A stretch of 60,277 nt of DNA from Candidatus Thorarchaeota archaeon (GTDB lineage Archaea; Asgardarchaeota; Thorarchaeia; Thorarchaeales; Thorarchaeaceae), in the NCBI GenBank assembly GCA_003345545.1, contig PRDH01000028.1:1-60277 (forward strand), written 5' to 3'. The notes under the pieces were generated by a model that was not told the origin of the DNA, ran no database searches, and worked only from the letters and a program-made list of their open reading frames with translations. Position numbers and translations under genes: made by a program. This document shows positions 19,836-35,797 of the stretch, in pieces. Position 1 is the stretch's first letter. Each line of letters begins with the position of its first letter.

Positions 19836-21356
19836 CTACGGGTAGAATGTCTGAGCCGCTTGAAATGCGTAATCGAGTACTAGGTTTGGCAGGATAAACA
19901 ACAGGAGTACAACGAATACGCAAATGCCTGCTGAGAGCATTGAGGATCGTGGCATACACAGCTTCGTATCATTGGCTGGATCCAGCATGTAGGAGTACTT
20001 CAAGACACGGAGGTAATAGCCTAGAGAAAAGACTGAGTTCAGGAGGCCCACTAAAGCCAGCCACCACATGCCTGCAACAATTGCACTCTGGAATACAACT
20101 AGCTTTGACCAGAAACCGACACCGACTGGCAGACCGGCCAAAGAAAGCATCAGGATTGCAAGCATTGCTGACGCCATCGGAGCCTTCTTGCTGAGCCCAG
20201 CCAGATCGTCGTAGGTTATCCGTCTTGCTAATGTAAGGGACATCGCCCATACGAGAATGAATGCCGCTGTCTTCATGATGGAATGGGCGAAGGCAAAGAA
20301 GACTGCCGATGCCATTCCAATTTCATTTCCTGCAGCGATGCCAATGAACAAGTAGCCCATCATTGCAATGCTTGAGTAGGCAAGCATTCTCATAATGTCC
20401 TTCTGAGCTAGTGCAAGCACATTCCCGATGACCATAGTCAGAATTGCAACTCCAGCTATCAACGGAGCCCACTCCGTCTTAGCAACGAAGAAAGCAATCA
20501 TGAGAATTCTCATGAGAGCACTCACGCCGGTCTTCTTTGACCCGCCAGCTAGATACGCAGTAACACTTCCGTCAGCACTGGCGTACGCATCTGGCACCCA
20601 TTGCCACCCAGGAAAGATGCCTACCTTGAATCCAAATGATACAATGAAGAGGACCATGGCCAGGAGCAGCGTATAGGCCGAAGACTCGCTTCCGACTGGA
20701 GTTGCCCAAAGGTTTGTGATGTAGATCCTGATTGCCTGCAGATCCGTAGAGCCCGTAACCCCCAAGGTGAGAGCAATGCCTAGTAGCATGAGAGCAGTTG
20801 CCAACAGACCCATCACGAAGTACTTCAGCGCACCATCTACAGCCTCCCTGTGAGGGCCAAGTGCGACTAATACATAGGTGGGTGTAGACATTAGCTCCCA
20901 AGCAATAAACAGGGCGACGAGATCGGTTGCCATGACGACCCACAGAGCTCCTGCGAATGAGATGAGAAGCAGAAAGTTATAGGTCCCCTTGTCTCCGCCC
21001 CATACACTCGATGACATCAGGACCAGGAAGGCCACAACTAGCACAATGTAGATGAAGATGTCACTGAAAGCATTTCGAACAAAGAGCGTTCCAAAGGAAT
21101 AGCCTGGCATTGTCTCTGGAATTGTCTCTGGATTGAGCAAGACCATCTCAAGTGTTGCAAGAACTACACCAACGAAGCTGACACCGAGGGGATTGTATCT
21201 AAGACCAATTACCAATGCCAGTATTGCGAAAAGCACCAGGGTTATCGCTGGGAGCGACATAATCCAACCATCAGGAACGAAAGCTAGGATTGCATCTGTC
21301 AATCCGGAGAAGACACTTCGCAAGAAACTCGCAATCAAGTCTAGTTGCATCATCAA
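19836..21356 (-). CDS. nuoN: Complex I-like antiporter subunit N
   Basis: AWELMS, ALKYFVMG, FKVG..P..QWVPDAY, RMLAYSSIA, SLAGLP...GFWSK. Confidence 0.9.
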   Translation of the reverse strand: MMMQLDLIASFLRSVFSGLTDAILAFVPDGWIMSLPAITLVLFAILALVIGLRYNPLGVSFVGVVLATLEMVLLNPETIPETMPGYSFGTLFVRNAFSDIFIYIVLVVAFLVLMSSSVWGGDKGTYNFLLLISFAGALWVVMATDLVALFIAWELMSTPTYVLVALGPHREAVDGALKYFVMGLLATALMLLGIALTLGVTGSTDLQAIRIYITNLWATPVGSESSAYTLLLAMVLFIVSFGFKVGIFPGWQWVPDAYASADGSVTAYLAGGSKKTGVSALMRILMIAFFVAKTEWAPLIAGVAILTMVIGNVLALAQKDIMRMLAYSSIAMMGYLFIGIAAGNEIGMASAVFFAFAHSIMKTAAFILVWAMSLTLARRITYDDLAGLSKKAPMASAMLAILMLSLAGLPVGVGFWSKLVVFQSAIVAGMWWLALVGLLNSVFSLGYYLRVLKYSYMLDPANDTKLCMPRSSMLSAGICVFVVLLLFILPNLVLDYAFQAAQTFYP

Positions 21357-22924
21357 GGCATACCTCCCAGGAGCATCTGTTCGATAACTGGTTGTATTAC
21401 TCCGAGAATCAAGTCAGGCCATATTCCAAGCAAGATGACAGGAATCAGCATCAGTGTTGGCGCGACCAGGTCGTTCCAGGAGGCCTCAGAGACCTCCACT
21501 TGAGGGTCAGGGTCGCTGAACACGATTCTGTTCAGCATCCACAGCATGTAGCCCACCGTGAGAAAGATGCCAAAGGCAATCAGTGCCGACAGGGGGTATA
21601 TCACAATAGCTCCAAAGATGACCAGTGCTTCAGCAATAAAGCCACTAAAGCCAGGTAGACCAAAAGCTGCGAGCGTGGCGATTATCAACACTCCAGAGAG
21701 GTGCGGTGCTTTCGTCATAAGACCCTTGACATTGGGAATCTCTCTCGTCCCTGCGCTGTATTTGAGCTGACCTGCAACAATGAACATCACGGATATGATC
21801 GTGCCATGAGAGAACATCATAAATATTGAACCCTGAACAGCCAAGTTTGCTGCTGCCTGGATTGCAGGATCGGGGGAGTTGTAGCCAGCAGCATAGGCAG
21901 CAACACCAAGTAGGACCCAAGCCATATGATTGATCGAGGTGTACGCGACAAGGCTCTTCATGTCAGTCTGAGCAAGTGCAGTGAAAGCAGCATAGATGCA
22001 CGTAAAGACAGCAACGACTGCAAACGGAATGGCCAGTCGTGCCATAGCCTCAGGTACCATCCACAGGCCAAGACGGATGAATGCATACCCTCCCATCTTT
22101 AGCAGGATTCCTGCAAGAATGACAGAGCCTGGTGTCGGAGCCTTCACATGTGCCCATGGAAGCCAGTTGTGAAGAGGAAATACGGGCAACTTCACACCAG
22201 CACCCACAAAGAGAGCAAGGGCGAATCCAATCTGAACGGTTGGATCGAGTCCAACGTTGCGTAGCGCGACCATATCGAAGGTGGGTACATGATCGACCGT
22301 GAAGTTGGAGGACATGAAGTAGAGATAGAAGAAGCCCACCAACATCACAGCAGAGCCGAGATGTGTGTAGATGAAGAACTTGATTGAGGCGTGTCTACTA
22401 CCTTCCTCGCCCCACCTGCCAATGATGAAGAACATGGGCACTAGGACAAGTTCCCAGAATACGAAGAATCCAATCAAATCAAATGAAACAAAGACTCCCA
22501 GCAGCCCTGTCTGAAGCAGAAGAAACAGAGCGTAGTAGACATTTGCAGAGTCCTTGATGTGATTCGACCCGATGGCTGCAATCCACACAACGAGGGCGGA
22601 AAGCAGAACCAAGACCATCGAAATTCCATCGACGCCAAGGATAATCTCAAAGACTGGAGAATCTGTGGTTGTTCCTAGTCGAGCTAAGATATAGCTCCAG
22701 GTGTGGCTCAGACCGCCTGGGGCTGGACCTACTGATGGAGTGCCCAGCATCAGTAGTACGGAGAGACCCAGCTCTAGAGTTGTGATGACCAGCGTGATGG
22801 CTCGCGCTCCCTTGTTTCCGAGGAGATAGGCGAGGAATGCGCCACCTAGAGGCATCACAAGCATTAGGACAAGGATGTTCAATGGAAGACTACTGATAAG
22901 ACTCGTGGCAAAGTCCAGCTGCAT
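21353..22924 (-). CDS. nuoM: Complex I-like antiporter subunit M
   Basis: FWELVLVPM, KFFIYT, VKLPVFPLHNWLPWAH, LLKMGGY, PGFSGFIAE. Confidence 0.92.
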   Translation of the reverse strand: MQLDFATSLISSLPLNILVLMLVMPLGGAFLAYLLGNKGARAITLVITTLELGLSVLLMLGTPSVGPAPGGLSHTWSYILARLGTTTDSPVFEIILGVDGISMVLVLLSALVVWIAAIGSNHIKDSANVYYALFLLLQTGLLGVFVSFDLIGFFVFWELVLVPMFFIIGRWGEEGSRHASIKFFIYTHLGSAVMLVGFFYLYFMSSNFTVDHVPTFDMVALRNVGLDPTVQIGFALALFVGAGVKLPVFPLHNWLPWAHVKAPTPGSVILAGILLKMGGYAFIRLGLWMVPEAMARLAIPFAVVAVFTCIYAAFTALAQTDMKSLVAYTSINHMAWVLLGVAAYAAGYNSPDPAIQAAANLAVQGSIFMMFSHGTIISVMFIVAGQLKYSAGTREIPNVKGLMTKAPHLSGVLIIATLAAFGLPGFSGFIAEALVIFGAIVIYPLSALIAFGIFLTVGYMLWMLNRIVFSDPDPQVEVSEASWNDLVAPTLMLIPVILLGIWPDLILGVIQPVIEQMLLGGMP

Positions 22925-25126
22925 CTAGAGTACCCCCATTGCTAGAAGGCCGATGACTATCAAGAGGCCAATGCCAAAGATCACCACACTTACGTAATCA
23001 TTGATTCGCCCGGTCTGCGTTTCCAGTCCTATCTCTGAAGCCTCCACGCTCCTAGTTGAAACCCCCTCTGCAAAACCATCAATGATATTGTCATCAAACC
23101 AGCGAATCTTTCTTGAAAGGGTCTGCGCAGTACCAGCAGATTTGAAGTCAATCCCATCGATTACGGGATCATCGACTTGGACTCGCCAGGCATCTGCGAA
23201 GCGGAGGAGCTTGTTTACGAACCAGTAGTAGGACTCATTGATGTACCATCGATGCCTCAGAAGGTTGTACAGCTTCCGGCGAACACCATTATCAGGAATA
23301 ACTGAGTTTGGTCTATCTGCATTCTTTATGTAAATTCGATACGCAGGTACTCCGCCAAGAAGGAGAGCGCCAATAGTGATCGCGAACGGGACAACTCCAG
23401 GCATTGTGAACTTGGCGATAGTCATCTCCCAGAGTGTTCCTATCAATAGCTCTGGAGTCATCGGTCCTTCTTGGAGAATGATTGCTTGAATAAAGGGAAA
23501 CACAAGGAATGCAATTATCGTGAATCCTGCGAGGATATACAACGGAACCATCATAGCAGGACCGGGGTCATGAGGACTCGTGTGATGTTCTTCTTCTTGA
23601 TGTTCCGGCTCCTTTCCATGAAAGACTATTCCCATGAGCCTTATGCTGTAGAAGATAGTACATGCTGCGGCAAACACTGCAAGGCCGAACAGCAGAATGC
23701 CAAATGAATACTCGACAGCTAACTCGTAGGTGTACTCTATAATGGAGTCCTTGGACCAGAAACCAGATAGCGGTGGAATGCCCGCAAGTGCAAGCACACC
23801 AATCAGCATGACTCGATAGGTCCGAGGCATGCTCTTCTTCAGACCTCCCATATTGGACATATACTTCGTATGGACTACATGAATGACGCCGCCAGCGGCA
23901 AGGAAGAGAAGGGCTTTGAAGGCACCATGGGAAACAACATGAAGCACACCGCTGAGATATGCCTGATCGAAGTGACCATTCACAGCGAGGATTCCGCCTG
24001 TGCCAATTGCCAGAATCATGTAGCCTAGCTGACTCAGAGTTGAGAAGGCAAGGACCTGCTTGAGCTCGTTCGAAACCATGCCCATTGTAGCTGTCATAAA
24101 AGCAGTAATCGCTCCGACGACTGCAACAATGATGAAGAATGTGATGGCCATCTCGATACCGAAAGTCTGTAGCGGCGCAAAGCCAGGTCCTGCGCGAATT
24201 TCATGAGCTGGGGTTGCAGTAGCATTTACAATGGTCACCAGGAAACGAGCAGTGATATACACACCAGCCTTAACCATAGTCGCAGCATGAATCAACGCAG
24301 AGACCGCAGTCGGGCCGCTCATTGCCTCTGGGAGCCACACCTGCAGGGGAACCTGACCAGACTTTCCTATGGCACCTGCAAAGATGAGGATGAGCGCAGG
24401 TAGCAGGAGACCCCAGTTCGCCATCGTACCCCACCAATTATTGATATTGTTGGCAAGGTCTGTGAACAGGAAGGAACCAGTGAACGTGAAGAGCAGGAGA
24501 ATGCCGCCCAGCATCAAGGCGTCGCCAACCCTTGTAACGATGAAGGCCTTCGTGCCGCAGTGAGTGTTGTATTCGCCCTCTGTCTCGAATTGCAGCAAAG
24601 GATTACTCTGTTGATAGCCCATGGGATCTTGTTCCGGCCTGTTCCGCTTGTCATTCCAGAAACCAATGAGACCATAGCTGCATAGGCCCATGATCTCCCA
24701 ACCTATGAAAGCAATCAGCAGGGATCCGCTCAGGACTAGAGTCAGCATTCCTCCTCCGAACAAGAGCATCAGGAAGAAGAATCTGTTTCTATCGGCTTCA
24801 TGAGCCATGTACTCAGTGCTGTACACATAGATGAGAAAACACAGCGTGCTTGATAGAATGGCCATGATCACGGAGAGCGGGTCGAGGAGCATCTCGAAGG
24901 GAACATAGAGACCTGGGATATTGATCCACTCATAATGTGGCATGTGCTCTATGCCTAGGTCTGGAAGAAGGGACCAACATAGCACCATTGTCATGCCCAT
25001 CAATATAGCTGGCGTCCAGTCACGGAGCCTTATGCTGAATCTTCCCACAAGTGGCACCAACAGTGATCCAGCCAGAGGAATGACGAGGATTAGATAATAG
25101 GGTAGACCAAGTAACATCTGACTCAC
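22925..25126 (-). CDS. nuoL: Complex I-like antiporter subunit L, 733 aa, with extended lateral helix
   Basis: GWEIMGLCSY, KSGQVPLQVWLPEAMSGPT, HAATMVKAG, FWSKD, QTG.INDY terminal motif. Confidence 0.92.
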   Translation of the reverse strand: MSQMLLGLPYYLILVIPLAGSLLVPLVGRFSIRLRDWTPAILMGMTMVLCWSLLPDLGIEHMPHYEWINIPGLYVPFEMLLDPLSVIMAILSSTLCFLIYVYSTEYMAHEADRNRFFFLMLLFGGGMLTLVLSGSLLIAFIGWEIMGLCSYGLIGFWNDKRNRPEQDPMGYQQSNPLLQFETEGEYNTHCGTKAFIVTRVGDALMLGGILLLFTFTGSFLFTDLANNINNWWGTMANWGLLLPALILIFAGAIGKSGQVPLQVWLPEAMSGPTAVSALIHAATMVKAGVYITARFLVTIVNATATPAHEIRAGPGFAPLQTFGIEMAITFFIIVAVVGAITAFMTATMGMVSNELKQVLAFSTLSQLGYMILAIGTGGILAVNGHFDQAYLSGVLHVVSHGAFKALLFLAAGGVIHVVHTKYMSNMGGLKKSMPRTYRVMLIGVLALAGIPPLSGFWSKDSIIEYTYELAVEYSFGILLFGLAVFAAACTIFYSIRLMGIVFHGKEPEHQEEEHHTSPHDPGPAMMVPLYILAGFTIIAFLVFPFIQAIILQEGPMTPELLIGTLWEMTIAKFTMPGVVPFAITIGALLLGGVPAYRIYIKNADRPNSVIPDNGVRRKLYNLLRHRWYINESYYWFVNKLLRFADAWRVQVDDPVIDGIDFKSAGTAQTLSRKIRWFDDNIIDGFAEGVSTRSVEASEIGLETQTGRINDYVSVVIFGIGLLIVIGLLAMGVL

Positions 25127-25127
25127 C

Positions 25128-26624
25128 TCATGGGCCGAACACGCCTGAAAACACCGGGACTATGACATCGAGTGCCAAGCTCGGGAATATTCCAAAGATT
25201 ACAATGAGAACGCCAAGGATCACCATCGGGATGGTCATTGATCGAGGACTCTCCTTCACTTCCTCAAGAGACTCCGGATGCGCACCCAAGAACACGCGCC
25301 AGAAGAATCGCAGCATGTAGGCAGCACTCAGAATCGAGCTTGATGCTGCAATAATGGCCAGAAGTAGAAAGCTCATGTTGAGCTCCGCACCGGGAATCGG
25401 AATCGCTGCTTGGAAGCCTCCCAGAAACATCATCCATTCACTTGCAAAACCCGAGAGGGGAGGGCTGCCCGCAATGCTCATCATTCCTATCGCTGCCGCA
25501 AATGCAGTGATAGGCATCTTGTTGGAGAGACCACCCATCTTCTTGATGTCGCGAAGACCTGTCTGATGTATGACCGCACCGGCAGACATGAACAACAGCC
25601 CCTTGGAGAAAGCATGGTTGATGAGATGAAACATTCCACCAGATACGCCTGCAATTGTTGCAGTGCCCAGAGCGAAGAGCACGTACCCCATCTGTGAAAC
25701 AGATGAATATGCAAGGAGTCTCTTGATGTCTACCTGGGCAAGAGCCATGAAACCGCCGTAGAAAACTGTGATAACACCAAGTGTTGCTATGTAGAGGGCA
25801 AACTGACTTGCGACGACATCCAGAGTCAGTGTACCAAATCGTACGAGAGCATAGGCACCTGTCTCAATCATCGCACCGGACAGGAGAACAGAGATTGGAG
25901 TAGGTGCCTCTGCATGAACCGGTGGAAGCCACCAATGGATCGGAAACACTGCCATCTTGACTAGGAAGCCAGCAGCAAGCAGTATGAAGATAATCTTGAA
26001 TATCAGGTCTCCACTCGCCCCAAGGTTTGCCAGTACAAAAGATCCACCACCGTTGGCGTATAGCAATCCGAATCCAATAAGGATACAGACTGCACCGGAC
26101 TGGGTATAGAGCCAGAACTTGAGAGCTGTGCGCTTTCGAGTTTCTGGAAGTCCCCAGAAGAGGATGAGGAAATAGCTGGGGACAAGCATGATTTCCCATG
26201 CAATGAAGAATTCTATTAGGTTAGTTGCAAGTGTCACCCAAATCATGCCCATGATGAAGAAGAGCTGATTGGCGAAGAAGGTCGGTTTGTGTTCTGTGTG
26301 TTCAGTGTACCCTACTGCATACACCACTGATAGGAATCCGAGCACAACGACTGCGAGGGTGATGGGAAATGCTACGGGGTCAAGAAAGAGCCCGAACGGC
26401 TCTAGAAGTGTCGACCAGACATATGTCTCCTCTGAGAAGCCTTCGGTCATCAGCTCGTAGAAGGGCTCTATCATCAAAGCAGAGCCTGCAAGAGATACAC
26501 CAGTGGCAATCTTTCCCGCGCTATTACTGATTCTATTCTTGAAGACGTAGATGAGGAGTGCTCCTATGAACATGACAGCTAGAGAGAGCGCCATGAAGGG
26601 GAACTCAGAGAGGAAGGTCTGCAT
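25128..26624 (-). CDS. Additional (fourth) antiporter subunit, NuoM/MrpD-like
   Basis: AWEIMLVP, VKMAVFPIHWWLPPVHAEAP, KRLLAYSSVSQMG, GFASEW; likely start MQTFLS overlapping the nuoI stop. Confidence 0.88.
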   Translation of the reverse strand: MQTFLSEFPFMALSLAVMFIGALLIYVFKNRISNSAGKIATGVSLAGSALMIEPFYELMTEGFSEETYVWSTLLEPFGLFLDPVAFPITLAVVVLGFLSVVYAVGYTEHTEHKPTFFANQLFFIMGMIWVTLATNLIEFFIAWEIMLVPSYFLILFWGLPETRKRTALKFWLYTQSGAVCILIGFGLLYANGGGSFVLANLGASGDLIFKIIFILLAAGFLVKMAVFPIHWWLPPVHAEAPTPISVLLSGAMIETGAYALVRFGTLTLDVVASQFALYIATLGVITVFYGGFMALAQVDIKRLLAYSSVSQMGYVLFALGTATIAGVSGGMFHLINHAFSKGLLFMSAGAVIHQTGLRDIKKMGGLSNKMPITAFAAAIGMMSIAGSPPLSGFASEWMMFLGGFQAAIPIPGAELNMSFLLLAIIAASSSILSAAYMLRFFWRVFLGAHPESLEEVKESPRSMTIPMVILGVLIVIFGIFPSLALDVIVPVFSGVFGP

Positions 26625-27055
26625 TACCGGAACCTCCTTCCACGCCACTCAAACGGTTCCCTCTCAAGGGTAGTGATCTTATCCGGCCCGTAAATCAGGT
26701 CTCTTCGATCGCCCTCACTTAGGTCGACGACTGGAGTGTGGAAAAGAGCGTTGAATCGGCAGGCCTCGACACAGTGCCCACAGAAGATGCAACGAGTATA
26801 GTCAAAGTATAGAGCTGCGTCTTTCTCGTACATCTTATCGTCCTTGTCTATTCGTATCGCAACGACTGGGCATGACCTAACGCACTGCGCACACGCTGTG
26901 CAGTTCTGTCGGACATGGATGTGCCTTCCACGTGTCCTCTCCGGATAGATTCTGTCCTCAAATGGGTAGAAGTAAGTGAAGGGTCTCTTGAAGACCTGCC
27001 TGAATGTGTGTTTCAGAATCTTGAAGATGTCACCCAGTACACTGAAGAAACCCAT
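26624..27055 (-). CDS. nuoI: Complex I subunit I, 2x[4Fe-4S]
   Basis: CTACAQCVRSCP and CIFCGHCVEAC. Confidence 0.92.
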   Translation of the reverse strand: MGFFSVLGDIFKILKHTFRQVFKRPFTYFYPFEDRIYPERTRGRHIHVRQNCTACAQCVRSCPVVAIRIDKDDKMYEKDAALYFDYTRCIFCGHCVEACRFNALFHTPVVDLSEGDRRDLIYGPDKITTLEREPFEWRGRRFR

Positions 27056-27058
27056 CGT

Positions 27059-28225: not shown

Positions 28226-29346
28226 CCAGGATACGGGTCTAAGCTTCCAAATATCACAATGAAGTCCGCAAACTTCGCGCCAGGGACCAAGTCCTTCAAA
28301 GCGTAGTAGGATGCAAAACAGGGTCCACGTATCTTTGCGCGATATGCACTCTGTGCCTTATCTTGAGTCTTGAGCCATAGTGATGTGATACCTCGTGTCC
28401 CTTCTACGCGACCGTATGCCTCTCCTGCCGGAAGTCTATTGACTTTGGCACGAGCTTTGGCGTCGATGATAGGACCTTCGGGTAATTGCGGTAGCAGTTG
28501 TTTTATAATCTCTACAGAGGTTTCTGCCTCCTTGAATCTCTGTTCCATCCGGTCTAGAGCATCACTCTCTCCAGGATGATCCGGATTCTCAGTAATCGGT
28601 ACTTCCCAATCGCACAGGTTGTATGCAAGATTCGAATCAGGAGCATCTTTTCTCAGGTCCATGGGGATGCCACATGCCTTGATGGGAGGTCCACTTAGTC
28701 CCCATTTGAGACCCTGTTTTGCGGTGTACTGCCCAATGCCCTTGGTCCTCGCTCTGAAGGTAGGACTTCCCATCTGCATATCCCGGAACTTGGGCAATCT
28801 GTCCTCAAACCTCTTGACGGCTCTATTGATCTGTTTCAAGACCTTCTCATTAAAGTCGAACCTTGTTCCGCCAGGAGTTGAGAACGATACAGTGTGTCGC
28901 GAACCCGTCAACTCTTCAAAGGCATCCAGTGAATACTCTCGGTCGACCCATGGCCAGAGAGCCATTGTAAAGAATCCAAGCTCTGCATTGAACTGTCCCC
29001 ACCAGAATTGAATACTGTGCAGACGGGACAGCTCCATCATGATGGTCCTCATGACCTTCGCTCGATCTGGTACCTCAAGCTCTGCAATCTTTTCAACTGC
29101 AGCAACATAGGGATACTCAGCAAGAAATGCCTCAAGCATGCACATTCTTTCCATGACAAGGGACCCTTGCCTGAAGGTCCTGTACTCAAGGACCTTCTCT
29201 GCAGAACGGTGAAAGTATCCGGCATTTGGATCACACTTGACAATGTAGTCGCCGACCAAAGTCAATTTTGTCGCCCATCCGTGAGCGGAAACATGTTGAG
29301 GTCCGAACCAGACATCTATGGCCTCATCAAGGATGTTAGGGCTCAC
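28210..29346 (-). CDS. nuoD: Complex I subunit D (no NiFe-binding CxxC pairs)
   Basis: GPQHVSAHG, GYFHRSAEK, ELSRLHS, C-terminus SLDPYPGWWDR. Confidence 0.9.
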   Translation of the reverse strand: MSPNILDEAIDVWFGPQHVSAHGWATKLTLVGDYIVKCDPNAGYFHRSAEKVLEYRTFRQGSLVMERMCMLEAFLAEYPYVAAVEKIAELEVPDRAKVMRTIMMELSRLHSIQFWWGQFNAELGFFTMALWPWVDREYSLDAFEELTGSRHTVSFSTPGGTRFDFNEKVLKQINRAVKRFEDRLPKFRDMQMGSPTFRARTKGIGQYTAKQGLKWGLSGPPIKACGIPMDLRKDAPDSNLAYNLCDWEVPITENPDHPGESDALDRMEQRFKEAETSVEIIKQLLPQLPEGPIIDAKARAKVNRLPAGEAYGRVEGTRGITSLWLKTQDKAQSAYRAKIRGPCFASYYALKDLVPGAKFADFIVIFGSLDPYPGWWDR

Positions 29347-29891
29347 TGGTTCGCTCCTCCTGTCCTTGTCGGTGTTTTTGGTGGAGTGATGCCTGTCTCA
29401 TCCAAGCGGCTTCTGTCAGTTTGGAATCTCTTGCGAAGAGGAAAAGCTCCCTCAAGTTCATCCGGTAGAAGGAGCAGCCGAGGGTCAGGATGATTCTTGA
29501 ATTCAATCCCGAACATCTCTCGAGTTTCACGTTCGTGCCATTCAAAGCCGGGGAAGATGTCACAAGTACTCTCGATCTCAGGTCTCTCCCCTTCCAACGA
29601 CACTCTCAGTTGGAGCAGTAATCGATTTGAGTGAGACCAAATGATGTAGATAAGCTCGTACTTGTCGTTTTCAAGATCGATTCCAAAGACCGATTCAGGA
29701 AGAGCGTCATGCACTTCCTCGTTGATCATCGTCACAACCTGTCGAATCTTATTAGCAGGCACCAGCAGCTCAATCTGATTCGCACCCAAAGACCTAGAAC
29801 CGACCTCGGGATGCTTATTGATGAGCTTTCTTGCGAAAGCTGAAGCGTCAATGGTGGAGGATTGTGACAGCTCATCTTCCCTCCATCTCAA
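29343..29891 (-). CDS. nuoC: Complex I subunit C
   Basis: WHERETREMFGIEFKNHPDPRLLLLP...FPLRK; start codon uncertain. Confidence 0.9.
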   Translation of the reverse strand: MRWREDELSQSSTIDASAFARKLINKHPEVGSRSLGANQIELLVPANKIRQVVTMINEEVHDALPESVFGIDLENDKYELIYIIWSHSNRLLLQLRVSLEGERPEIESTCDIFPGFEWHERETREMFGIEFKNHPDPRLLLLPDELEGAFPLRKRFQTDRSRLDETGITPPKTPTRTGGANQ

Positions 29892-30186
29892 TTGGCTTGC
29901 CTAGGTCAACCGAATTGTATCGACGGTTATACATCAGCATCAAGACCAATGCTAGCGCAGTATGTGCAGCAGAAACAGAGATGACGAGCATGATTAAGCC
30001 CTGACCTGTGAAGTAGAACACCGGGTTGTATAGAGAGATGGCAACCAGGGCAATATTGGCTCCATTGCCCATTATCTCAGCTCCTATCAGGATTCTAATG
30101 AGGTTCCTTTTCACCATCATCCCGTATCCACCTAACCCTATCATCATGAAAGAGAGCACCAAATACCAGGTGAGCGGGATCATCAA
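29872..30186 (-). CDS. nuoK: Complex I subunit K
   Basis: RNLIRILIGAEIM..GANI, three TM helices. Confidence 0.85.
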   Translation of the reverse strand: MMIPLTWYLVLSFMMIGLGGYGMMVKRNLIRILIGAEIMGNGANIALVAISLYNPVFYFTGQGLIMLVISVSAAHTALALVLMLMYNRRYNSVDLGKPIEMEGR

Positions 30187-30827
30187 GCATCAACCTCCTT
30201 GGATTCATCGATAGTTCGCACATCATCAGCAATGGTTCGCTCATCTTTGGTAGAGCTTGCCTCTCCTCCAGAAGCCCCGATGATAACTCCGAGCTGCTCA
30301 GCTTTGTCGATCTTCAAAAGGGCGATTGCGCCCACGAGAGCGGTGAGGATGATCAGGGCGACCATCTGCACGTAGATACCATTCTCAGACCACAACCAGA
30401 GCGCAAGACCATTCAGATCTTGCGAGATACTAACGAATGCCTCATTGAATGACTCAGCCCATGGGAAGATGATCGCAAGAAAGCCAGTAAGTACTGTCAC
30501 GACTGCTGAAATGAGGAGACCAATATGACGAACTCTGGCGGACGCGAATTTCTCTAGAGTCGAGTCTTGGACTCTTGGTAATATGAGAACTGCAAAAATA
30601 ATCAAAGCGCTGATTCCACCAGTGTACACGGCAATCTGCATTCCAGCAATGAAGGGCGCTTCAAGCAGAAGGAAGAAACCAGCGACAAAAGATGCCATGA
30701 AACCAAAGAAGAATGCGGCATAGACTATCTCCTTATGCTCCAGGGCCAGATATGCAAGCACCAGGACCATGCCTGCCAAGAATAGAAACTCGATCTGCTC
30801 GAATAACGCAGGATCAAAACCTTGCAT
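30183..30827 (-). CDS. nuoJ: Complex I subunit J
   Basis: LLLEAPFIAGMQIAVYTGGI motif; five TM helices. Confidence 0.88.
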   Translation of the reverse strand: MQGFDPALFEQIEFLFLAGMVLVLAYLALEHKEIVYAAFFFGFMASFVAGFFLLLEAPFIAGMQIAVYTGGISALIIFAVLILPRVQDSTLEKFASARVRHIGLLISAVVTVLTGFLAIIFPWAESFNEAFVSISQDLNGLALWLWSENGIYVQMVALIILTALVGAIALLKIDKAEQLGVIIGASGGEASSTKDERTIADDVRTIDESKEVDA

Positions 30828-30829
30828 CT

Positions 30830-31297
30830 CTATCGACCTCCCGCAGCCAACTGCTCTTGTTCTCTCTCAGCCTTCATCTTCCTGTATAACTCAACAGTCT
30901 CTCTGCCATCGAGGAATGTGTGTGGAATCATTTTCAAGGAAAAACCAATTCCGCCCATGATTATGAAAATGAAGACGATAACCTGCCATACAACCTCATA
31001 TTTGGTAGCGTCAGCCCATAGAATGGTCGAGGAAGAGAGGAGCCAAAGAAATGCGCCCATCACGTCGACAACTACAAAGAGCACAGTGTATACGAAGTAG
31101 TTGTAAGGATAGGAAATGCGTGAGGGACCTACTGGTACCTCGCCACATTCGTATGTCGAGGTCTTCTCGGAGTTCTGGAGAACATGAGGTCGTAGCACCC
31201 AGGAGGCTAGCAGCATTACAATGACGAGAATTATCGCAAGTAGCGCCCAGACTACGACAGGGAAGAAATCCAAGAACAATCTAGTGGTTTGTATCAT
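30830..31297 (-). CDS. nuoA: Complex I subunit A
   Basis: KTSTYECGE.P loop, LFVVVDV; three TM helices. Confidence 0.9.
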   Translation of the reverse strand: MIQTTRLFLDFFPVVVWALLAIILVIVMLLASWVLRPHVLQNSEKTSTYECGEVPVGPSRISYPYNYFVYTVLFVVVDVMGAFLWLLSSSTILWADATKYEVVWQVIVFIFIIMGGIGFSLKMIPHTFLDGRETVELYRKMKAEREQEQLAAGGR

Positions 31298-31416: not shown

Positions 31417-31437
31417 GGAAAGCAGCATGATAAAAAC
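31417..31437 (-). promoter_or_regulatory. Putative TATA-containing promoter of the nuoA operon
   Basis: Minus strand GTTTTTATCATGCTGCTTTCC, 18/21 identical to 34411..34431. Confidence 0.5.
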
Positions 31438-31515: not shown

Positions 31516-31881
31516 GTGATTCATTTGGCTCGCGGCGAAGAAGGAAAATTCTTCTACTACCTATCGCTCCTAATTGGAATGTCTCTTCTGGGAGCCTACA
31601 TGTGGATAGTAATGAGTGCGGCACTTGCTCCGCAGTACGTGTTTTTCCATTTGATCCTTTTCATGAGCGGGATTCTACTCATTGCCTCGGCGTTCGGATT
31701 TGTTGCTGCTGATACCCGATCAAGTAGAGTAGCACTGACAATAGTTTCTGGCGTTTTTGGCGGTATTCATGCGTATCTCATCTTCGTTCTGTTTGAGTAT
31801 CTCACGAATGTCATCCTGTTTGCACTCATGGCTCTTGGGCTCATGATTGCATTTGCTGCTTTCAACTGGCTCTACGATTGA
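31516..31881 (+). CDS. Small four-TM membrane protein
   Basis: 121 aa, almost entirely hydrophobic; TTATAT upstream at about 31462. Confidence 0.7.
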   Translation: MIHLARGEEGKFFYYLSLLIGMSLLGAYMWIVMSAALAPQYVFFHLILFMSGILLIASAFGFVAADTRSSRVALTIVSGVFGGIHAYLIFVLFEYLTNVILFALMALGLMIAFAAFNWLYD

Positions 31882-31891
31882 AGCGAAATCC

Positions 31892-32425
31892 CTACTCATT
31901 AGGAACAGCAGATGCAGGATCAACAGCATCAGCGGCTTTCTCGGGTTTTGTTTCAGTCTTAGGTGCAGCTTCTTCCGCAGGTTTTTGTTCAGCACCGTAA
32001 CGTAGTGACCCTACATCCAACATGCCCGGAGAGTAACTCTCTTCGCGAGTATGCATCACCGAGAAACCTCCGGCTGTCAGTACCGAACCTCCAAGCCCCC
32101 AGGCCGAGAGATACAGTGTAGTCCCAACTGCAGGGAGAGCATTCACAAATTCATCAACAAAGATTACGAAGAAAAAGCCAACAACAATCGATAGTGCCAT
32201 CATCAGGCTCTTTCCTTTACCTCTCGCAGGTCGGAAATATCCAACTAACAGGAATACTAACAATAGGGAAGTCCCACTTAGGAGAGCGAAGGCACTTCCA
32301 ATGACCAGCACCGATTCTGGCATCAAGAAGCCAAGATAGATGAAATTGAAGATGAACGATGACAGAATGATGATTCCTAGCCAGAGCATGCAAAACGGGT
32401 CGCTATCTTGTCGAATCGACATCAC
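31892..32425 (-). CDS. Four-TM membrane protein with Ala/Glu/Pro/Lys-rich tail, translationally coupled to the FAD-NuoB fusion
   Basis: 4-nt overlap with the upstream stop; four hydrophobic segments. Confidence 0.7.
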   Translation of the reverse strand: MMSIRQDSDPFCMLWLGIIILSSFIFNFIYLGFLMPESVLVIGSAFALLSGTSLLLVFLLVGYFRPARGKGKSLMMALSIVVGFFFVIFVDEFVNALPAVGTTLYLSAWGLGGSVLTAGGFSVMHTREESYSPGMLDVGSLRYGAEQKPAEEAAPKTETKPEKAADAVDPASAVPNE

Positions 32426-34362
32426 TGTATCAGCCCCATCGCATCCTGGTTTTCATATCTTCTTTGCCAGTGAGTCGTGCCAGCTCGTATTTTGTTCTGA
32501 AGAATCAGATGTGCCCGAATGAAATCTGCCGGCTTCGGAGGACAGCCCGGCAAGTAGACATCGACAGGTACTACCTTGTCCGGAGGCGTCATCAGGCTGT
32601 ATCCCTCCCAGAAGAGGCCTCCTGAAGCAACGCATTGACCAAAAGCGATCACATACTTGGGCTCAGGCATCTGCTCGTAAATCCTCCTGAGCCGTGGTGC
32701 CATCTTCTTGGTGAGCGAACCTGAGATCCACAGAACATCGGTCTGTCTCGGACCAAACAGGGGTAGCATACCAAATCGTTCAAAGTCCCATCGTGGAGCT
32801 ATCCCTGCAGCACCTTCCACCATGCAACATCCTATACCATACTGCATCGGCCAGGGACTATGGGCGCGTCCCCATCTGAGTACCCACTTCAGTGGCGGCA
32901 CATTCTGCAACCATTTCAGCAGAATGGGAGCGATCCGACCCCAACCATTTCTGAACAGATCAAAGAAGATCCACATGAAGTATTTCCCGATTCTCAAGAT
33001 GAACGGTAGCCAGTAGGCAAATATCTTCCCGGGATTCGAGATCTCCTTCTTGTCCCATTGAAGTTTCGCTGCTCGAATTCGGGACAGCCGTTCTTTTCCA
33101 AAGTACTGATATGCGTAGTTTGCGAACCAAATTCCTGTGGAGTGCACATGCCCTCCATGACGTTGTGCAATTTTGAATATGACAAAGCTCTGTGACCACG
33201 AGAGCATGTAGAAGTGTCTTCGCTCATCTTCAAGGAAGTAGCCCATCATAGTCACTCCGGTCTTTGAGTTGACGTAGCCATCGATCCCAGCTTTCGCAGA
33301 GGCTTGTTCATACTGGAAATCATCAAGGATTGCAACGAGATTCTCGAGAGGCGCAAAAGCTTGACCGACTACCAGAGTTGGCCCTCTCTTCTTGATCTTC
33401 ATTGGATAGTAGCGCAGCTGCCATTCATGTTCTGCAAACTCATCATCATAGACACGCCCTCGATACATCTCAGTGACTTCGCGGACAACTCTCAACCCCT
33501 CTTCTGTTTCTTCCTCGTTGCCCTCATATGCAATCATCAGTGAACAATGATTGGCCGGTATCGGGAACGGCTTCTTGCCCTCCCAAATGGCCTTTTTGAG
33601 GTCGGTGTACTTTGACTCCTCGAATTTCATCGTGTACGGAAGTGGGCCATCTTCGAGTATCTTCTCAATTGCAAGAACCATCTGATAGTTTTCTTCAAAA
33701 CTGGAAACAATGACCTTCATCGGCGTGAGGGTTTTTATCTTGAGAGTGGCTTTGGTGATGATACCCAGTATTCCTTCAGTGTCGCAGAAAAGGCCAAAAT
33801 CCTTCGTGTTGACTATTCTTCCTGTTGGCAGAACCACTTCGAGCTCGATTATGTTCTCATTGATCTTTCCATACTTCAACGAGCCAATGCCATCGCCACC
33901 TTGGGCAATCCAGCCACCCACAGTCGCTGAGATACCAGATGATGGATAACATCGTATATCCAGACCCTTCCTGTTCAACGCAAACTGAAGATTCGCCCAA
34001 GAGATTCCTGGTTCAACCGTGACAGTGAGATTCTCAGAGTCAACGTCAAGAATCCTGTCCATTCGGCGCATATCAACAATGATGCCTCCTTTTCTTGGAA
34101 TCGCGCCGCCATATCCTGATGTTCCTGCCGCTCTGGGGACGAGGGGGATCTTGTGTTTTCGCGCCAGCTCATAGAGCGCCTGTATCTCTTCAGGAGTCAG
34201 AGGTTGAACAAGGGCGTCGGGCTTTGTGTTCATGAGCCAACCGACTTGCTTTGGAAGAGAACCAACGTCTTGCCCAAACAGAATCAGCTCATGCTTCGCA
34301 GTGATTAAGCGGTCTCCGAAAATCTTGCCTAGTTCTTCAACCAGCTTTTGATCAAGGACCAT
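32422..34362 (-). CDS. Fusion of a GlcD/Dld-type FAD-binding oxidoreductase (N-terminal) and NuoB [4Fe-4S] N2 subunit (C-terminal)
   Basis: FAD part: PRAAGTSGYGG, TVEPGI, SATVGGWIA, EGILGIITKATL, NPGK. NuoB part: WGRAHSPWP, GIGCCMVE, PRQTD, QMPEPKYVIAFGQC, VDVYLPGCPP. One uninterrupted frame; likely start MVLDQ at 34362 with GGAGA upstream. Confidence 0.9.
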   Translation of the reverse strand: MVLDQKLVEELGKIFGDRLITAKHELILFGQDVGSLPKQVGWLMNTKPDALVQPLTPEEIQALYELARKHKIPLVPRAAGTSGYGGAIPRKGGIIVDMRRMDRILDVDSENLTVTVEPGISWANLQFALNRKGLDIRCYPSSGISATVGGWIAQGGDGIGSLKYGKINENIIELEVVLPTGRIVNTKDFGLFCDTEGILGIITKATLKIKTLTPMKVIVSSFEENYQMVLAIEKILEDGPLPYTMKFEESKYTDLKKAIWEGKKPFPIPANHCSLMIAYEGNEEETEEGLRVVREVTEMYRGRVYDDEFAEHEWQLRYYPMKIKKRGPTLVVGQAFAPLENLVAILDDFQYEQASAKAGIDGYVNSKTGVTMMGYFLEDERRHFYMLSWSQSFVIFKIAQRHGGHVHSTGIWFANYAYQYFGKERLSRIRAAKLQWDKKEISNPGKIFAYWLPFILRIGKYFMWIFFDLFRNGWGRIAPILLKWLQNVPPLKWVLRWGRAHSPWPMQYGIGCCMVEGAAGIAPRWDFERFGMLPLFGPRQTDVLWISGSLTKKMAPRLRRIYEQMPEPKYVIAFGQCVASGGLFWEGYSLMTPPDKVVPVDVYLPGCPPKPADFIRAHLILQNKIRAGTTHWQRRYENQDAMGLIQ

Positions 34363-34410: not shown

Positions 34411-34431
34411 GGAGAGCAGGAAGATAAAAAC
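34411..34431 (-). promoter_or_regulatory. Putative TATA-containing promoter of the FAD-NuoB fusion gene
   Basis: Minus strand GTTTTTATCTTCCTGCTCTCC, matching the motif upstream of nuoA. Confidence 0.5.
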
Positions 34432-34564
34432 ATAGCGTAGTAATGCATGCACAATTCGTTTTGCGAGGCCCGAGAGCAGATTGCTTCATCTGGTCGCGGT
34501 CCAAATGGAAGGATTTTAAGGAGCATTGCACCGAAATTCCTGAGTGATTCATTCTCGGAGATAA

Positions 34565-35797
34565 GTGACGATGGACTTTCCAACACTGAATGAATACGAT
34601 CTTCAAAGATACGCATTCACTTGCGCTCAGTGCAGTTTCTGTCAAGTAGGTCATGGTGCTTGTCCCACCTACAAAGTGAAGCGGCGCGAAACATATTCAG
34701 GCAAGGGCAAGATGCTCTTGACCCGAGCATTGATGCAAGGTCGAATCAAACCATCCGAGGGTCTCGAGGGTCTGAGGGACGGAATTTTTGGCTGTACTCT
34801 GTGTGGAGGTTGTGAAGAGGTCTGCCATGTGGATATCCCGTTCGTGAAGCTCTATCAGGTGATGCGCTCGGAGTTCAAGAAGCGAAATATGTGGCCCGAA
34901 AGACTGCAGACGGCAAAGGACACACTATTGAAGACTTTTAATATTCAAGGCCAGGCACAAATGGATAGGATAGAGGGATGGTCCTATTGGACTCCTAACG
35001 AGAATGAATTGCTGGGCAAACAGGGGACTCCAGCAAAGACTGCCTTCTTCGTTGGATGTGCGTCTTCGTTTCGGGGCGTTTCGATTCAAGCCACAATTGC
35101 CACGACACTGATCCTAGATAGGATTGGAGAAGAGTATACTATGCTGGGCGAACAAGAATACTGCTGCGGCGCGCCGCTTATCATGTCAGGCGATTTCGAG
35201 GGGGCAAGAGCTCTCGCAGAGCATAATATTCAGAAGTATAGAGAGCTCGGCGTTGAAACGATAGTAACCAACTGCCCGGGTTGCTACAAGATGTGGGCTC
35301 ATGAGTACCATGAGTTCTTGGGTATCGATCATGGTTTTGAGATTCGCTATGGCTATGAATATCTTGCAGATCTTCTTGATAGAGGGAAACTGACAGGTTT
35401 CAATACTCCTCTTAATGCCACAGTCACGTTCCACGATGGTTGCGACGCTGGTAGGAATACAGGATTCTATGAAGAGCCAAGGAAAGTACTGGAGAGTATA
35501 CCGGGCGTGACATTTGAAGAACTCCCGCACAACAAAGCAAACTGCTATTGTTGTGGTTCCGGAGGCGTACTGAGAGCCATTGATGCCGAATTCGCCAATC
35601 AGATCAATAGACTCAAGGTAGAAGATATCGAAGCCACAAATGCAGAAATCGTAGCGTCTGGTTGTCCATCTTGCGTAGACTTTATGCATGCTCAACTTCC
35701 ACAGGCAGGTTCGAATAAGATGGTGAAAGATCTTGCTGTCCTTGTCGCGCAAGCTCTTGGTCTGTCTTGGGACGGGCTTGATGAGATATATGGCTGA
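34565..35797 (+). CDS. Fe-S oxidoreductase, GlcF/HdrD-like (2x[4Fe-4S] plus two CCG domains)
   Basis: CAQCSFC...CP, CTLCGGCEEVC, FVGC, YCCG, NCPGC, HDGC, YCCGSGG, GCPSC. Confidence 0.9.
   Translation: MTMDFPTLNEYDLQRYAFTCAQCSFCQVGHGACPTYKVKRRETYSGKGKMLLTRALMQGRIKPSEGLEGLRDGIFGCTLCGGCEEVCHVDIPFVKLYQVMRSEFKKRNMWPERLQTAKDTLLKTFNIQGQAQMDRIEGWSYWTPNENELLGKQGTPAKTAFFVGCASSFRGVSIQATIATTLILDRIGEEYTMLGEQEYCCGAPLIMSGDFEGARALAEHNIQKYRELGVETIVTNCPGCYKMWAHEYHEFLGIDHGFEIRYGYEYLADLLDRGKLTGFNTPLNATVTFHDGCDAGRNTGFYEEPRKVLESIPGVTFEELPHNKANCYCCGSGGVLRAIDAEFANQINRLKVEDIEATNAEIVASGCPSCVDFMHAQLPQAGSNKMVKDLAVLVAQALGLSWDGLDEIYG

Follow-up and report, generated by a model that had tools for sequence, protein, structure and literature searches.

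In the Methanomassiliicoccales, a head-less Fpo-like complex together with HdrD has been proposed to act as a ferredoxin:heterodisulfide oxidoreductase of the energy-converting kind (PMC7374477). The locus described here lies in a 60,277-nt stretch of DNA from Candidatus Thorarchaeota archaeon (contig PRDH01000028.1, hereafter the window), and it resembles that system in combining an 11-subunit-type complex-I homologue, without an NADH or F420 head and thought to take ferredoxin, with an unanchored, soluble HdrD-type 2x[4Fe-4S]+2xCCG protein. In the Methanomassiliicoccales, however, the association is assumed and there is no fusion, whereas here the flavoprotein partner of the HdrD-like protein is covalently joined to NuoB. 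The Thorarchaeota system further adds a FAD domain and a fourth antiporter-like subunit, has no methanogenesis or known heterodisulfide, and contains menA and menG genes that point to a quinone.

Other described systems share single elements of this arrangement. In GlcDEF glycolate oxidase, the D-2-hydroxyglutarate dehydrogenase YdiJ and lactate dehydrogenases of the Dld/LdhH type, single-chain or split, electrons pass from a GlcD-fold FAD domain to a 2x[4Fe-4S]+CCG part, a layout found here in two genes; the metal and catalytic residues of these enzymes are absent from the Thorarchaeota FAD domain, and its equivalog scores are all far under cut-off. Fusion to a complex I subunit is not known for any of them. 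The input subunit FpoF/FqoF, which oxidises F420H2 in archaeal Fpo/Fqo, is likewise a non-NADH flavin and 2x[4Fe-4S] module on an archaeal complex I homologue, but it is a separate protein of unrelated fold (FrhB family), and its docking site is the far end of the Fe-S chain. Plant L-galactono-1,4-lactone dehydrogenase (PDB 7a24 chain z) is a VAO-family FAD_binding_4 flavoprotein physically attached to complex I; in contrast to the present case, the attachment is non-covalent and to an assembly intermediate, on its membrane arm, and the mature enzyme no longer contains the protein, which also lacks an Fe-S partner. In 2M complex I, too (Chadwick et al. 2018, cited in PMC9040806), there is one more NuoM-like subunit, and the lateral helix of NuoL is longer by about 26 residues; described 2M enzymes are known with a normal free NuoB, whereas here the genes run A-J-K-C-D-H-I-M-L-M-N, in an Asgard archaeon. 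Moreover, subunit L of Pyrococcus MBS, the membrane-bound sulfane reductase (6u8y_L), is the best match of the local NuoD among PDB structures, with an R-x-C-x-x-E active-site variant in common. MBS differs in its Mrp-type membrane arm and in keeping a C-terminal Cys, which HMMER alignments to PDB chains did not find in the Thorarchaeota NuoD; here a Nuo/Fpo-type arm is built from NuoL, NuoN and a pair of NuoM-like subunits.

A conserved fusion of a flavoprotein domain with NuoB

The fusion gene (32422-34362, reverse strand) encodes 646 aa within an ORF spanning 32422-34452(-); the earlier ORF start at 34452 is corrected to the ATG at 34362, which matches all homologues. This single ORF contains FAD_binding_4 (E 2.8e-41), FAD-oxidase_C (6.7e-10) and Oxidored_q6 (3.7e-23), so that the initial annotation of a NuoB fused behind a FAD oxidoreductase is borne out by Pfam. 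When sought in other genomes, the architecture was found in 59 of the 87 species genomes of the class and in 12 of its 17 genera. That faulty assembly or gene calling produced the fused ORF is hardly conceivable: the window is part of a fragmented MAG, and one genome (G024) has both halves in different frames, but the same 646-aa ORF recurs in about 46 clusters (90% identity) from NCBI, JGI, ENA and Logan assemblies, and the fusion is also present in a closed 3.16-Mb genome (L004) and in contigs of 548-750 kb. The junction is spanned by DNA contigs and by an RNA-library contig, identical to the window, that covers aa 439-555. As far as sequence data go, conservation and junction-spanning contigs refute the artefact reading and exclude the misassembly considered at the outset. 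The fusion is real and conserved. It is also apparently unpublished; a literature search found no paper describing it, in agreement with the initial impression of an undescribed architecture.

The fusion carries the only NuoB of the genome, as first claimed. A search of the whole genome (2.69 Mb, 92.9% complete) found no second copy; outside the fusion, PF01058 matched only on contig C52, where the hit is a soluble NiFe hydrogenase of group-3 type, in its small subunit. Further, the fusion and type-1 NuoD have the same genus distribution, with both in 12 genera and neither in 4. In one genus (g14), the FAD domain with its tail and the CCG partner occupy the same syntenic site without NuoB and without a nuo operon, implying that the pair can work without the pump.

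The FAD domain (aa 1-450; 33013..34362, reverse strand) is assigned by Pfam, AF2 and Foldseek to the VAO/PCMH fold of GlcD, LDHD and AGPS; its AF2 model has a pLDDT mostly >90, and its top Foldseek match is mouse LDHD (TM 0.85). Neither the His/His/Glu metal site nor the Glu-His motif of the Dld/GlcD/LDHD enzymes was found in the domain or anywhere in its subfamily, which keeps motifs of its own, including DER at 379-381. Against the NCBIfam GlcD model the domain scores 147 bits, with a cut-off of 568. The annotation as a GlcD/Dld-type flavoprotein consequently stands for the fold and fails for the metal and catalytic residues; judged by its residues, the domain is GlcD/Dld-like in fold alone.

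Amphipathic helices (aa 451-488; 32899..33012, reverse strand) connect this domain to the NuoB core, according to hydrophobic moment, AF2 and alignment. The moment is at its highest for the protein within aa 446-480, with 0.64 at aa 455 against an overall mean of 0.24 (sd 0.12), and AF2 predicts helices at 451-472 and 474-486. In the alignment with free NuoBs and the unfused P0082, residues 451-476 form an amphipathic tail, while residues ~477-500 are homologous to free-NuoB N-termini and represent NuoB's own N-terminal helix region; the stretch first described as an amphipathic linker is thus amphipathic, but it is no neutral spacer. The NuoB N-terminus presumably lies at the membrane interface, remote from the NuoI end where input modules or ferredoxin dock, as in solved complex I structures. 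The NuoB domain itself (aa 489-646 plus stop; 32422..32898, reverse strand), identified by Oxidored_q6, Cys positions and NuoB subfamily models above cut-off, clears the NCBIfam NuoB threshold (179.5 bits versus 116) and retains the four N2 cysteines reported initially, in GCC (C512 and C513), GQC (C577) and PGCPP (C607).

The pump and the neighbouring genes

The operon nuoA-J-K-C-D-H-I-M'-L-M-N (19836..31297, reverse strand; Pfam per ORF) encodes a head-less, complex-I-like pump. No nuoB, nuoE, nuoF or nuoG was found within it by the same Pfam assignments, and no NuoF was found in the whole genome. The initial description as headless therefore holds for the operon, but a different contig carries an FrhB/FpoF-like gene; it is the only FpoF-like gene and is present in 16 of 17 genera, and so is not specific to genomes with the fusion complex. 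NuoI is an ordinary 2x[4Fe-4S] subunit, able in principle to take ferredoxin as in other 11-subunit enzymes. The four antiporter-like subunits, together with a 26-residue repeat in the lateral helix of the 733-aa NuoL (DDxxIDG at residues 652 and 678), identify the pump as the 2M type. A four-antiporter, five-site pump needs about 0.35-0.4 V (roughly 375 mV) per electron pair, while transfer from lactate-type donors to menaquinone yields about 115 mV, and alcohol- or hydroxyacid-type donors are too weak to drive it. For the five-site 2M pump, the driving force has to be ferredoxin-like. Pumps of the 2M type are discussed for ferredoxin-level potential spans in PMC9040806, which cites Chadwick 2018.

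NuoD (28210..29346, reverse strand), present as a single copy in the genome, has a non-canonical acceptor site in HMMER alignments to PDB chains: HVSAHG is retained, RMCM replaces R(L/W)DY, and Met stands where the quinone-ligating Tyr is expected. The closed genome's NuoD has the same motif. With this substitution, quinone reduction by the pump may not take place at the usual site.

Downstream of the fusion gene, and overlapping its stop codon, begins a conserved gene for a membrane protein of about four helices (31892..32425, reverse strand) that belongs to no known family; Pfam and NCBIfam searches found no matches, and it is 34% identical (E 5e-31) to the same-place gene in the closed genome. 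A small hydrophobic ORF on the opposite strand (31516..31881, forward strand; ORF list and translation) lies between the fusion unit and nuoA, separating two transcription units, and a 116-aa opposite-strand gene takes the equivalent position in the closed genome. A TATA-like 21-nt motif occurs upstream of nuoA (31417..31437, reverse strand) and again before the fusion gene, ~50-70 nt upstream of its ATG (34411..34431, reverse strand); the window contains the pattern only these two times, against a chance expectation of 0, and it was not found in the closed genome. Beyond the CCG gene, and adjoining it in both genomes, are a DUF7530+PNPOx-like gene and a PNPOx-like gene of the F420-PPOX class (35852..37604, forward strand; Pfam, NCBIfam). 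They are followed by genes for a menA-type prenyltransferase (MenA TIGR00751, 123.8 bits versus a cut-off of 102.15), a polyprenyl synthase and a geranylgeranyl reductase (37609..41023; NCBIfam, Pfam). In L007 and L008, too, these three genes adjoin the locus, placing menA beside it in three lineages. MenG/UbiE is found in the genome above cut-off; MqnA/MqnD and MenD were not found there, so that naphthoquinone head-group synthesis is putative in that genome.

The CCG partner and possible functions

The divergent gene (34565..35797, forward strand; likely start ATG at 34571, with homologues of 407-408 aa) encodes the annotated 2x[4Fe-4S]+2xCCG protein (Pfam Fer4_8 and 2xCCG), a member of the HdrD/GlcF/TfrB superfamily whose NCBIfam matches are all under cut-off. 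It is co-conserved with the fusion gene; its cluster cysteines are invariant across 53 homologues, and both CCG motifs are intact. Its relatives comprise ~70 Thorarchaeota clusters at 63-91% identity, then fall to <=36%, and the more distant ones include proteins with NarI-type membrane domains. The pairing of flavin part and CCG protein suggested initially is supported by complex prediction: FAD(1-500) and the CCG protein gave an ipSAE of 0.87 in three runs, compared to 0.00 for the best of 3 controls. Of 80 solved complexes, 58 attained that mark, as did 2 of 110 mismatched pairs; these counts apply only roughly here because we supplied the alignments ourselves. At least 96% of contacts are shared between the runs (partner pLDDT at least 89). 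In the predicted interface, the [4Fe-4S] domain of the CCG protein (residues 15-90) faces a part of the FAD domain that includes the conserved DER 379-381. The model supports docking of the CCG protein's ferredoxin-like domain on the flavin domain, although the score could come from likeness to solved flavoprotein/Fe-S complexes. FAD-domain relatives at 30-39% identity are mostly single FAD+Fer4+2xCCG chains, one of them fused to an NrfD-type quinone-interacting membrane anchor, and in a distant relative three GcvH-type lipoyl-carrier domains are fused to FAD-Fer4-CCG. From these we infer that the FAD-FeS-CCG unit represents, in split form, the widespread proteins that have FAD, Fer4 and CCG on a single chain.

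The initial annotation proposed an electron-input module, coupling substrate oxidation to pumping through flavin, CCG-protein [4Fe-4S], NuoI/N2 and the acceptor site. The sole NuoB sits in the fusion and is co-distributed with the operon, the genome has no NuoF, its only FpoF-like gene is not specific to complex-bearing genomes, and the modelled Fe-S domain binds on the flavin side. Nevertheless, this proposal is now unlikely and was not upheld as stated: the catalytic residues of hydroxyacid dehydrogenases are missing, the attachment is presumably on NuoB's membrane side, g14 retains the pair without the pump, textbook potentials leave lactate-type donors short of the five-site requirement, and NuoI could accept ferredoxin. 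A flavin domain outside the pump's electron path, as a structural, assembly or regulatory appendage, is quite improbable. Former enzymes have been recruited as complex I accessory subunits, VAO-family GLDH sits on plant complex I intermediates (7a24_z is among the sequence matches), and the classical catalytic residues are absent; however, the FAD_binding_4 profile is matched end to end, the subfamily's own motifs are conserved, and the Fe-S partner is co-conserved with invariant ligands and kept where the pump was lost.

Doubtful, too, is a quinone-independent oxidoreductase passing electrons from ferredoxin through NuoI and N2 directly to the tethered HdrD-like protein, which would reduce a disulfide or another CCG-site substrate, with the flavin as an extra relay or second substrate site. 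It would fit the MBS-like NuoD without its quinone-binding Tyr, the intact CCG motifs of a protein in the HdrD/TfrB/DsrK group, the menaquinone head-group genes not found in the genome and the Methanomassiliicoccales proposal (PMC7374477), and the lipoyl-domain fusion hints at dithiol chemistry. Against it stand MenA and MenG, with menA beside the locus in three lineages, the lack of a candidate thiol cofactor or disulfide substrate, and the occurrence of the pair without a pump.

The explanation tentatively preferred, at somewhat less than even confidence, is that a FAD-FeS-CCG enzyme with a link to quinone is attached to the foot of a pump driven by ferredoxin, and does not replace the NADH module. 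The unit would be an independent redox enzyme at the membrane surface, fixed by in-plane amphipathic helices at the membrane-proximal foot of the peripheral arm, beside the quinone entry, and would exchange electrons with the pump via a locally shared menaquinone-type carrier. NuoEFG would not be replaced at the NuoI end, where reduced ferredoxin would stay the low-potential partner. Most likely, electrons would pass from reduced ferredoxin through NuoI and N2 to quinone, with ions pumped, and from quinol through CCG/FeS and FAD to an acceptor; the reverse direction is possible. This explanation draws on the conserved fusion, its shared distribution with type-1 NuoD and the RNA-library junction; on the single-chain relatives with NrfD- or NarI-type membrane parts; on the modelled docking, the amphipathic helices and the pair kept in g14; and on MenA, MenG/UbiE and the 2M-type pump. 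Points against it are the Met in NuoD, MqnA/MqnD and MenD not being found, a conjectural placement relative to N2, NuoI and the quinone entry in which the NuoB N-terminus is put where solved complex I structures have it, and a docking prediction that could pass through likeness to solved complexes. Under the preferred explanation, gene fusion would have made the Thorarchaeota complex into a supercomplex whose parts share the work in the way that Fpo and HdrDE do.

The FAD-NuoB fusion and its distribution

The fused protein is encoded by one open reading frame (32422-34452, minus strand) that carries FAD_binding_4, FAD-oxidase_C and Oxidored_q6 domains in a single frame. Comparison with homologues, all of which have 646 aa and the same start, places its start codon at the ATG at 34362, about 60 nt downstream of a TATA-like motif. 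Its C-terminal part is a NuoB, scoring 82 bits against PF01058 (Oxidored_q6; cut-off 27) and, within NCBIfam, 179.5 bits against NF005012 (cut-off 116) and 169.7 bits against TIGR01957 (cut-off 142.7). The four N2 cysteines, which the initial annotation had described as intact, are all present (C512 and C513 in GIGCCMVE, C577 in GQCVASGG and C607 in LPGCPP). The same annotation had taken this domain to be the sole NuoB, and the genome bears this out: in the 2.69 Mb, 92.9% complete assembly (G000), apart from the fusion, PF01058 matches only a soluble NiFe hydrogenase, in its small subunit (contig C52), leaving no separate canonical nuoB to serve the operon. There is one copy of NuoD in this genome, and NuoF was not found in it. 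The contig C52 hydrogenase comprises four genes (L003 1107-7103; Fer4_22, FAD/NAD, small and large subunits), which adjoin another FAD_binding_4/FAD-oxidase_C gene of 549 aa.

Several genomes of the class, including congeners, do have a free NuoB-like gene that is 43-46% identical to the fused domain. In genome G047, this gene sits in a second operon with the order A-B-CD-H-I-J-K-L-M (contig C54, L011 1231-9247), which G049 and further genomes of the class share and G000 lacks. The fused NuoCD of this operon has the full set of four NiFe cysteines (RICGIC and DPCFSC), which identifies the operon as a membrane-bound NiFe hydrogenase of complex-I-like form that has a small subunit of its own; the free NuoB-like genes seen in congeners do not serve the complex described here. 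At another locus (L010 10001-10561), a free NuoB of metagenomic origin that is 63% identical to the fused one is encoded singly, outside any nuo operon and beside hyp hydrogenase-maturation genes.

The fusion recurs throughout much of the class. In a word-indexed search, the 646-aa fused protein was recovered in about 46 clusters (at 90% identity), almost every one of which carries a Thorarchaeota label. They are drawn from NCBI, JGI, ENA and Logan assemblies, and their contigs include one of 3.16 Mb and others of 750, 591 and 548 kb. When fusions outside Thorarchaeia were sought with an exhaustive HMMER search over 1.84 billion representatives, a single full-length fused cluster was recovered. 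Within the class, 59 of 87 species genomes encode the NuoB part in a frame of 646-720 aa, and these belong to genera g1-g12; the NuoD of this operon type occurs in the same 12 genera and is absent from g13-g16. The fusion and NuoD genes are mostly separated by 3-5 kb, and sometimes by 10-26 kb or on separate contigs. Further, one DNA contig crosses the FAD/NuoB junction, and aa 439-555 are covered by a 368-nt contig that matches the window exactly and comes from the metatranscriptome library of a sediment, a hint of a fused mRNA. Runs X4 and X10 cover only portions of the stretch; gaps in contig cover are uninformative. The single fused reading frame, which had been put forward subject to a check for misassembly, is therefore upheld by the assemblies from several sources, the closed genome of another genus (L004, CP070761.1), the 59 species genomes and the junction-spanning contigs, and the probability that it is an artefact is negligible. 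One genome has its FAD part in a 461-aa frame and its NuoB part in another frame, of 266 aa (G024:C5:93256-95186), which may be a genuine split or a sequencing frameshift.

Two lineages show the locus in an unfused form. In genus g14 (L007; GCA_004524445.1, SDNP01000025.1, 8665-11497), the syntenic site is occupied by a FAD gene for a 498-aa protein (58% identical) and by the CCG gene, with neither a NuoB domain nor a nuo operon there or in the genus. MutS, GGR, prenyl synthase and menA flank the site on one side, and the opposite flank holds an ADP-forming acyl-CoA synthetase. In the tail of this FAD protein the amphipathic helix is still present, and the homology ends with FPPLKWI, which corresponds to the first turn of the NuoB helix; four unrelated residues follow. 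Together with the syntenic flanks, this tail favours a deletion, and it suggests that about 13 kb, from mid-gene to nuoN, was lost. In the FAD-domain tree the g14 form is sister to all fused forms, a position compatible with either an ancestral or a truncated state; whichever its origin, the FAD/CCG pair is kept without the pump in g14. In a more distant lineage (L008), a free nuoA-nuoB pair is divergent from nuoJKCDHI-M and has the same GGR/prenyl synthase/UbiA neighbours, a layout that is probably the unfused ancestral state.

A FAD-NuoB fusion was not found in the searched literature, including papers on Asgard metabolism; for other Asgard classes, Sun et al. 2021 report Dld-HdrD gene pairs as well as a head-less complex I, with no fusion mentioned. 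We regard the enzyme as a member of the complex I family to which a redox module of a new sort is covalently attached.

The flavin domain, its junction with NuoB and the CCG partner

The N-terminal part had been described as a GlcD/Dld-type FAD oxidoreductase, a description that fits the fold alone. Pfam assigns it FAD_binding_4 and FAD-oxidase_C, AlphaFold2 predicts a GlcD/LDHD/AGPS fold (mean pLDDT of 87 for the protein, mostly above 90 in the FAD domain), Foldseek matches mouse LDHD with a TM-score of 0.85, and the closest PDB sequence match is LctD. In the alignment, the His/His/Glu metal site and the Glu-His catalytic motif were not found in the domain; at the positions of H.GDGN.H and GEHG.G the fusion family has VNSKTGVTMMG and GGHVHSTGIW. 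Its scores are 146.8 bits against TIGR00387 (glcD; cut-off 567.9) and 82 bits against YdiJ (cut-off 1350). These motifs and scores rule out a classical D-lactate or glycolate dehydrogenase. In place of the hydroxyacid motifs, the 48 nearest homologues (30-39% identity) conserve L(D/E)DER and GG(R/K)PY.TG.W, and conserved motifs of its own, combined with the GlcD score below cut-off, mark a distinct FAD subfamily rather than a degenerate one-off. An ESM Atlas feature search returned generic FAD-oxidase clusters only, with scores below 0.9. The relatives of the domain are mostly single chains with the order FAD, Fer4 and two CCG domains, so the FAD domain and the CCG gene of the window represent a split form of a common architecture. 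Among the metagenomic relatives, P0085 has an N-terminal NrfD/PsrC-type membrane anchor fused to the same FAD subfamily, and P0209 has three GcvH-type lipoyl-carrier domains fused to FAD-Fer4-CCG.

Residues 446-480, at the junction, are predicted by AlphaFold2 to be helical and contain the highest hydrophobic moment of the protein (0.64 at aa 455; mean 0.24, standard deviation 0.12); such helices would be consistent with in-plane membrane binding. From about residue 477, there is homology to the N-termini of free NuoBs (metagenomic proteins, 57-64% identical), and the junction is therefore no neutral spacer. The Trp/Phe/Lys-rich amphipathic linker of the initial annotation is accordingly amphipathic and helical as described, but it is not a spacer, as NuoB's own N-terminus begins at about 477. 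We take the N-terminal helix of NuoB to lie at the membrane-arm interface near the quinone entry, well away from the docking site of NuoG or ferredoxin at the NuoI end.

The CCG protein, encoded by the divergent gene upstream of the fusion gene (34565-35797, plus strand), has two [4Fe-4S] motifs and two CCG domains (Fer4_8 and 2xCCG in Pfam). Thirteen cysteines are invariant (C20, C23, C26, C33, C77, C80, C83, C87, C165, C200, C293, C329 and C330), and C201, C240, C367 and C370 are conserved in at least 90%. The protein reaches no equivalog cut-off for any one characterised HdrD, GlcF, GlpC or TfrB member: its scores are 156 against TfrB, the top match (cut-off 385), 129 against LdhH (800), 108 against GlpC (278) and 70 against GlcF (333). 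Its orthologues form about 70 clusters with 63-91% identity and are confined to the fusion-bearing archaeal group, the next relatives being at most 36% identical; some distant relatives bear NarI-type membrane domains.

That the CCG protein is the partner of the fusion, as had been supposed, is supported by this shared distribution and by complex prediction. In particular, the FAD domain (residues 1-500) and the CCG protein are predicted to form a complex with a score of 0.87 in three runs (best of three controls, 0.00), with at least 96% of contacts in agreement and a partner pLDDT of at least 89; the [4Fe-4S] domain of the CCG protein (residues 15-90) is placed on the flavin domain, including its DER motif. 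Among solved complexes, 58 of 80 reached a score of 0.87, as did 2 of 110 mismatched pairs; these counts are approximate because we used our own alignments, and the high value may partly stem from likeness to solved flavoprotein/Fe-S complexes. The genome has 28 CCG-domain matches in about 14 proteins, making its HdrD/GlcF-like family unusually large, and in L004 the locus is directly preceded, on its upstream side, by two to three more pairs of FAD_binding_4 and CCG genes.

The locus and its pump

Downstream, the fusion stop codon is overlapped by a conserved gene for a 177-aa membrane protein of no known family, which is 34% identical (E 5e-31) to the product of the gene at the matching place in L004. 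A small ORF on the opposite strand separates it from the operon nuoA-J-K-C-D-H-I-M'-L-M-N, which runs on the minus strand and ends at 19836. On the upstream side, beyond the CCG gene, there are two PNPOx-like genes, then a MenA-type prenyltransferase (above the TIGR00751 cut-off), and then a polyprenyl synthase and a geranylgeranyl reductase. The layout in L004 is the same. A 21-nt TATA-like motif lies upstream of both nuoA (31417-31437) and the fusion gene (34411-34431) on the minus strand, with 18 of 21 positions in common and no further copy in the window; it was not found in L004, which makes it weak evidence. A Ras-family small GTPase gene (19200-19769, plus strand) lies between an acyl-CoA synthetase gene and nuoN, and is gone from the g14 locus along with the nuo block. 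The stretch 46432-48335 (plus strand), which is about 10 kb away from the complex, encodes a membrane protein like DoxD/DoxX together with another polyprenyl synthase, the second in the window.

The operon has four Proton_antipo_M genes, hence four antiporter-like subunits, and its NuoL (733 aa) contains DDxxIDG at residues 652 and 678, 26 residues apart. As described in PMC9040806, citing Chadwick 2018, the 2M type of complex I has an extra NuoM-like subunit and a NuoL lateral helix longer by about 26 residues; the pump of the window matches it in both its four antiporter genes and its 26-residue NuoL repeat.

Compared with NdhH and the 49-kDa subunit, NuoD retains the HxxxHG loop as HVSAHG and has RMCM instead of R(L/W)DY, a change of Tyr to Met, so that the quinone-binding Tyr of canonical complex I and NDH-1 was not found in it; the NuoD of L004 has the same pattern. 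Unlike the group 4 membrane-bound [NiFe] hydrogenases and the RICGIC- and DPCFSC-bearing NuoCD of the congeners' second operon, it lacks both NiFe CxxC pairs: a single cysteine remains at the N-terminal site, and the C-terminus, SLDPYPGWWDR, has no cysteine. The RMCM motif and the missing cysteine pairs together point to a non-canonical acceptor site. The closest solved relative of NuoD is MBS subunit L.

A FrhB/FpoF-like gene with an N-terminal 2x[4Fe-4S] domain is present elsewhere in the genome (C3:28850-29917; L013 4851-5918), where it stands alone and adjoins GTP cyclohydrolase II, and there are three homologues of CofE (F420 ligase). This FrhB/FpoF-like gene is shared by 16 of the class's 17 genera, among them genera without this complex, and so appears to have no specific tie to it. 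For quinone synthesis, MenA is in the window and MenG/UbiE on contig C34; MqnA/MqnD and MenD were not found in the 93%-complete genome, which does not prove them absent.

Proposed electron flow and its possible meaning for Thorarchaeia

A pump with five coupling sites needs about 0.35-0.4 V per electron pair, which the step from ferredoxin to menaquinone provides. By textbook potentials, hydroxyacid and alcohol donors are too weak for it, and this speaks against the FAD/CCG unit being a true electron-input module, an alternative that we consider unlikely. Of the proposal that a hard-wired flavin/CCG module lets substrate oxidation drive the pump, what survives is the conserved covalent tie and the predicted FAD-CCG pairing; the catalytic motifs are missing, and g14 keeps the pair without a pump. 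The voltage need, the flavin motifs, the site of the junction and g14 together favour a different arrangement, to which we tentatively give somewhat less than an even chance. A FAD-FeS-CCG enzyme at the membrane surface would be held at the foot of the pump through its fusion with NuoB, ferredoxin would drive the pump, and pump and enzyme would share local quinone; the enzyme would most likely re-oxidise the quinol and reduce some acceptor. Such a tethered enzyme would split the work as Fpo and HdrDE do.

Quinone could also be bypassed, with electrons passing directly from N2 to the HdrD-like protein; the same arrangement has been assumed for Methanomassiliicoccales (PMC7374477), and here the idea seems improbable. 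That the flavin domain is a structural or assembly appendage is very unlikely. A bolder formulation, which we regard as possible though doubtful, is that of a novel anaerobic respiratory machine in which an HdrD-type CCG/Fe-S protein and a flavoprotein are hard-wired through NuoB to the N2 end of the five-site pump, coupling ferredoxin oxidation directly, from cluster to cluster or through captive quinone, to the reduction of an organic or disulfide acceptor.

Complex I and its relatives are modular. To our knowledge, the known electron modules (NuoEFG, FpoF, the ferredoxin-binding NdhS/O/V and modules for hydrogenase or formate) each consist of separate proteins and sit at the distal end of the Fe-S chain; in contrast, the flavoenzyme here is covalently part of the N2 subunit, on its presumed membrane side, and an HdrD-like partner comes with it. 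The fusion would be the first genetic evidence that physically ties an HdrD-type protein to a complex-I-type pump, a tie merely assumed for Methanomassiliicoccales. Metabolic models usually treat Thorarchaeia as non-respiring fermenters or acetogens. The fusion bears on Asgard energy conservation, and the hard-wired machine, if real, would be a chemiosmotic energy source that is missing from current reconstructions of Thor-type Asgard archaea.
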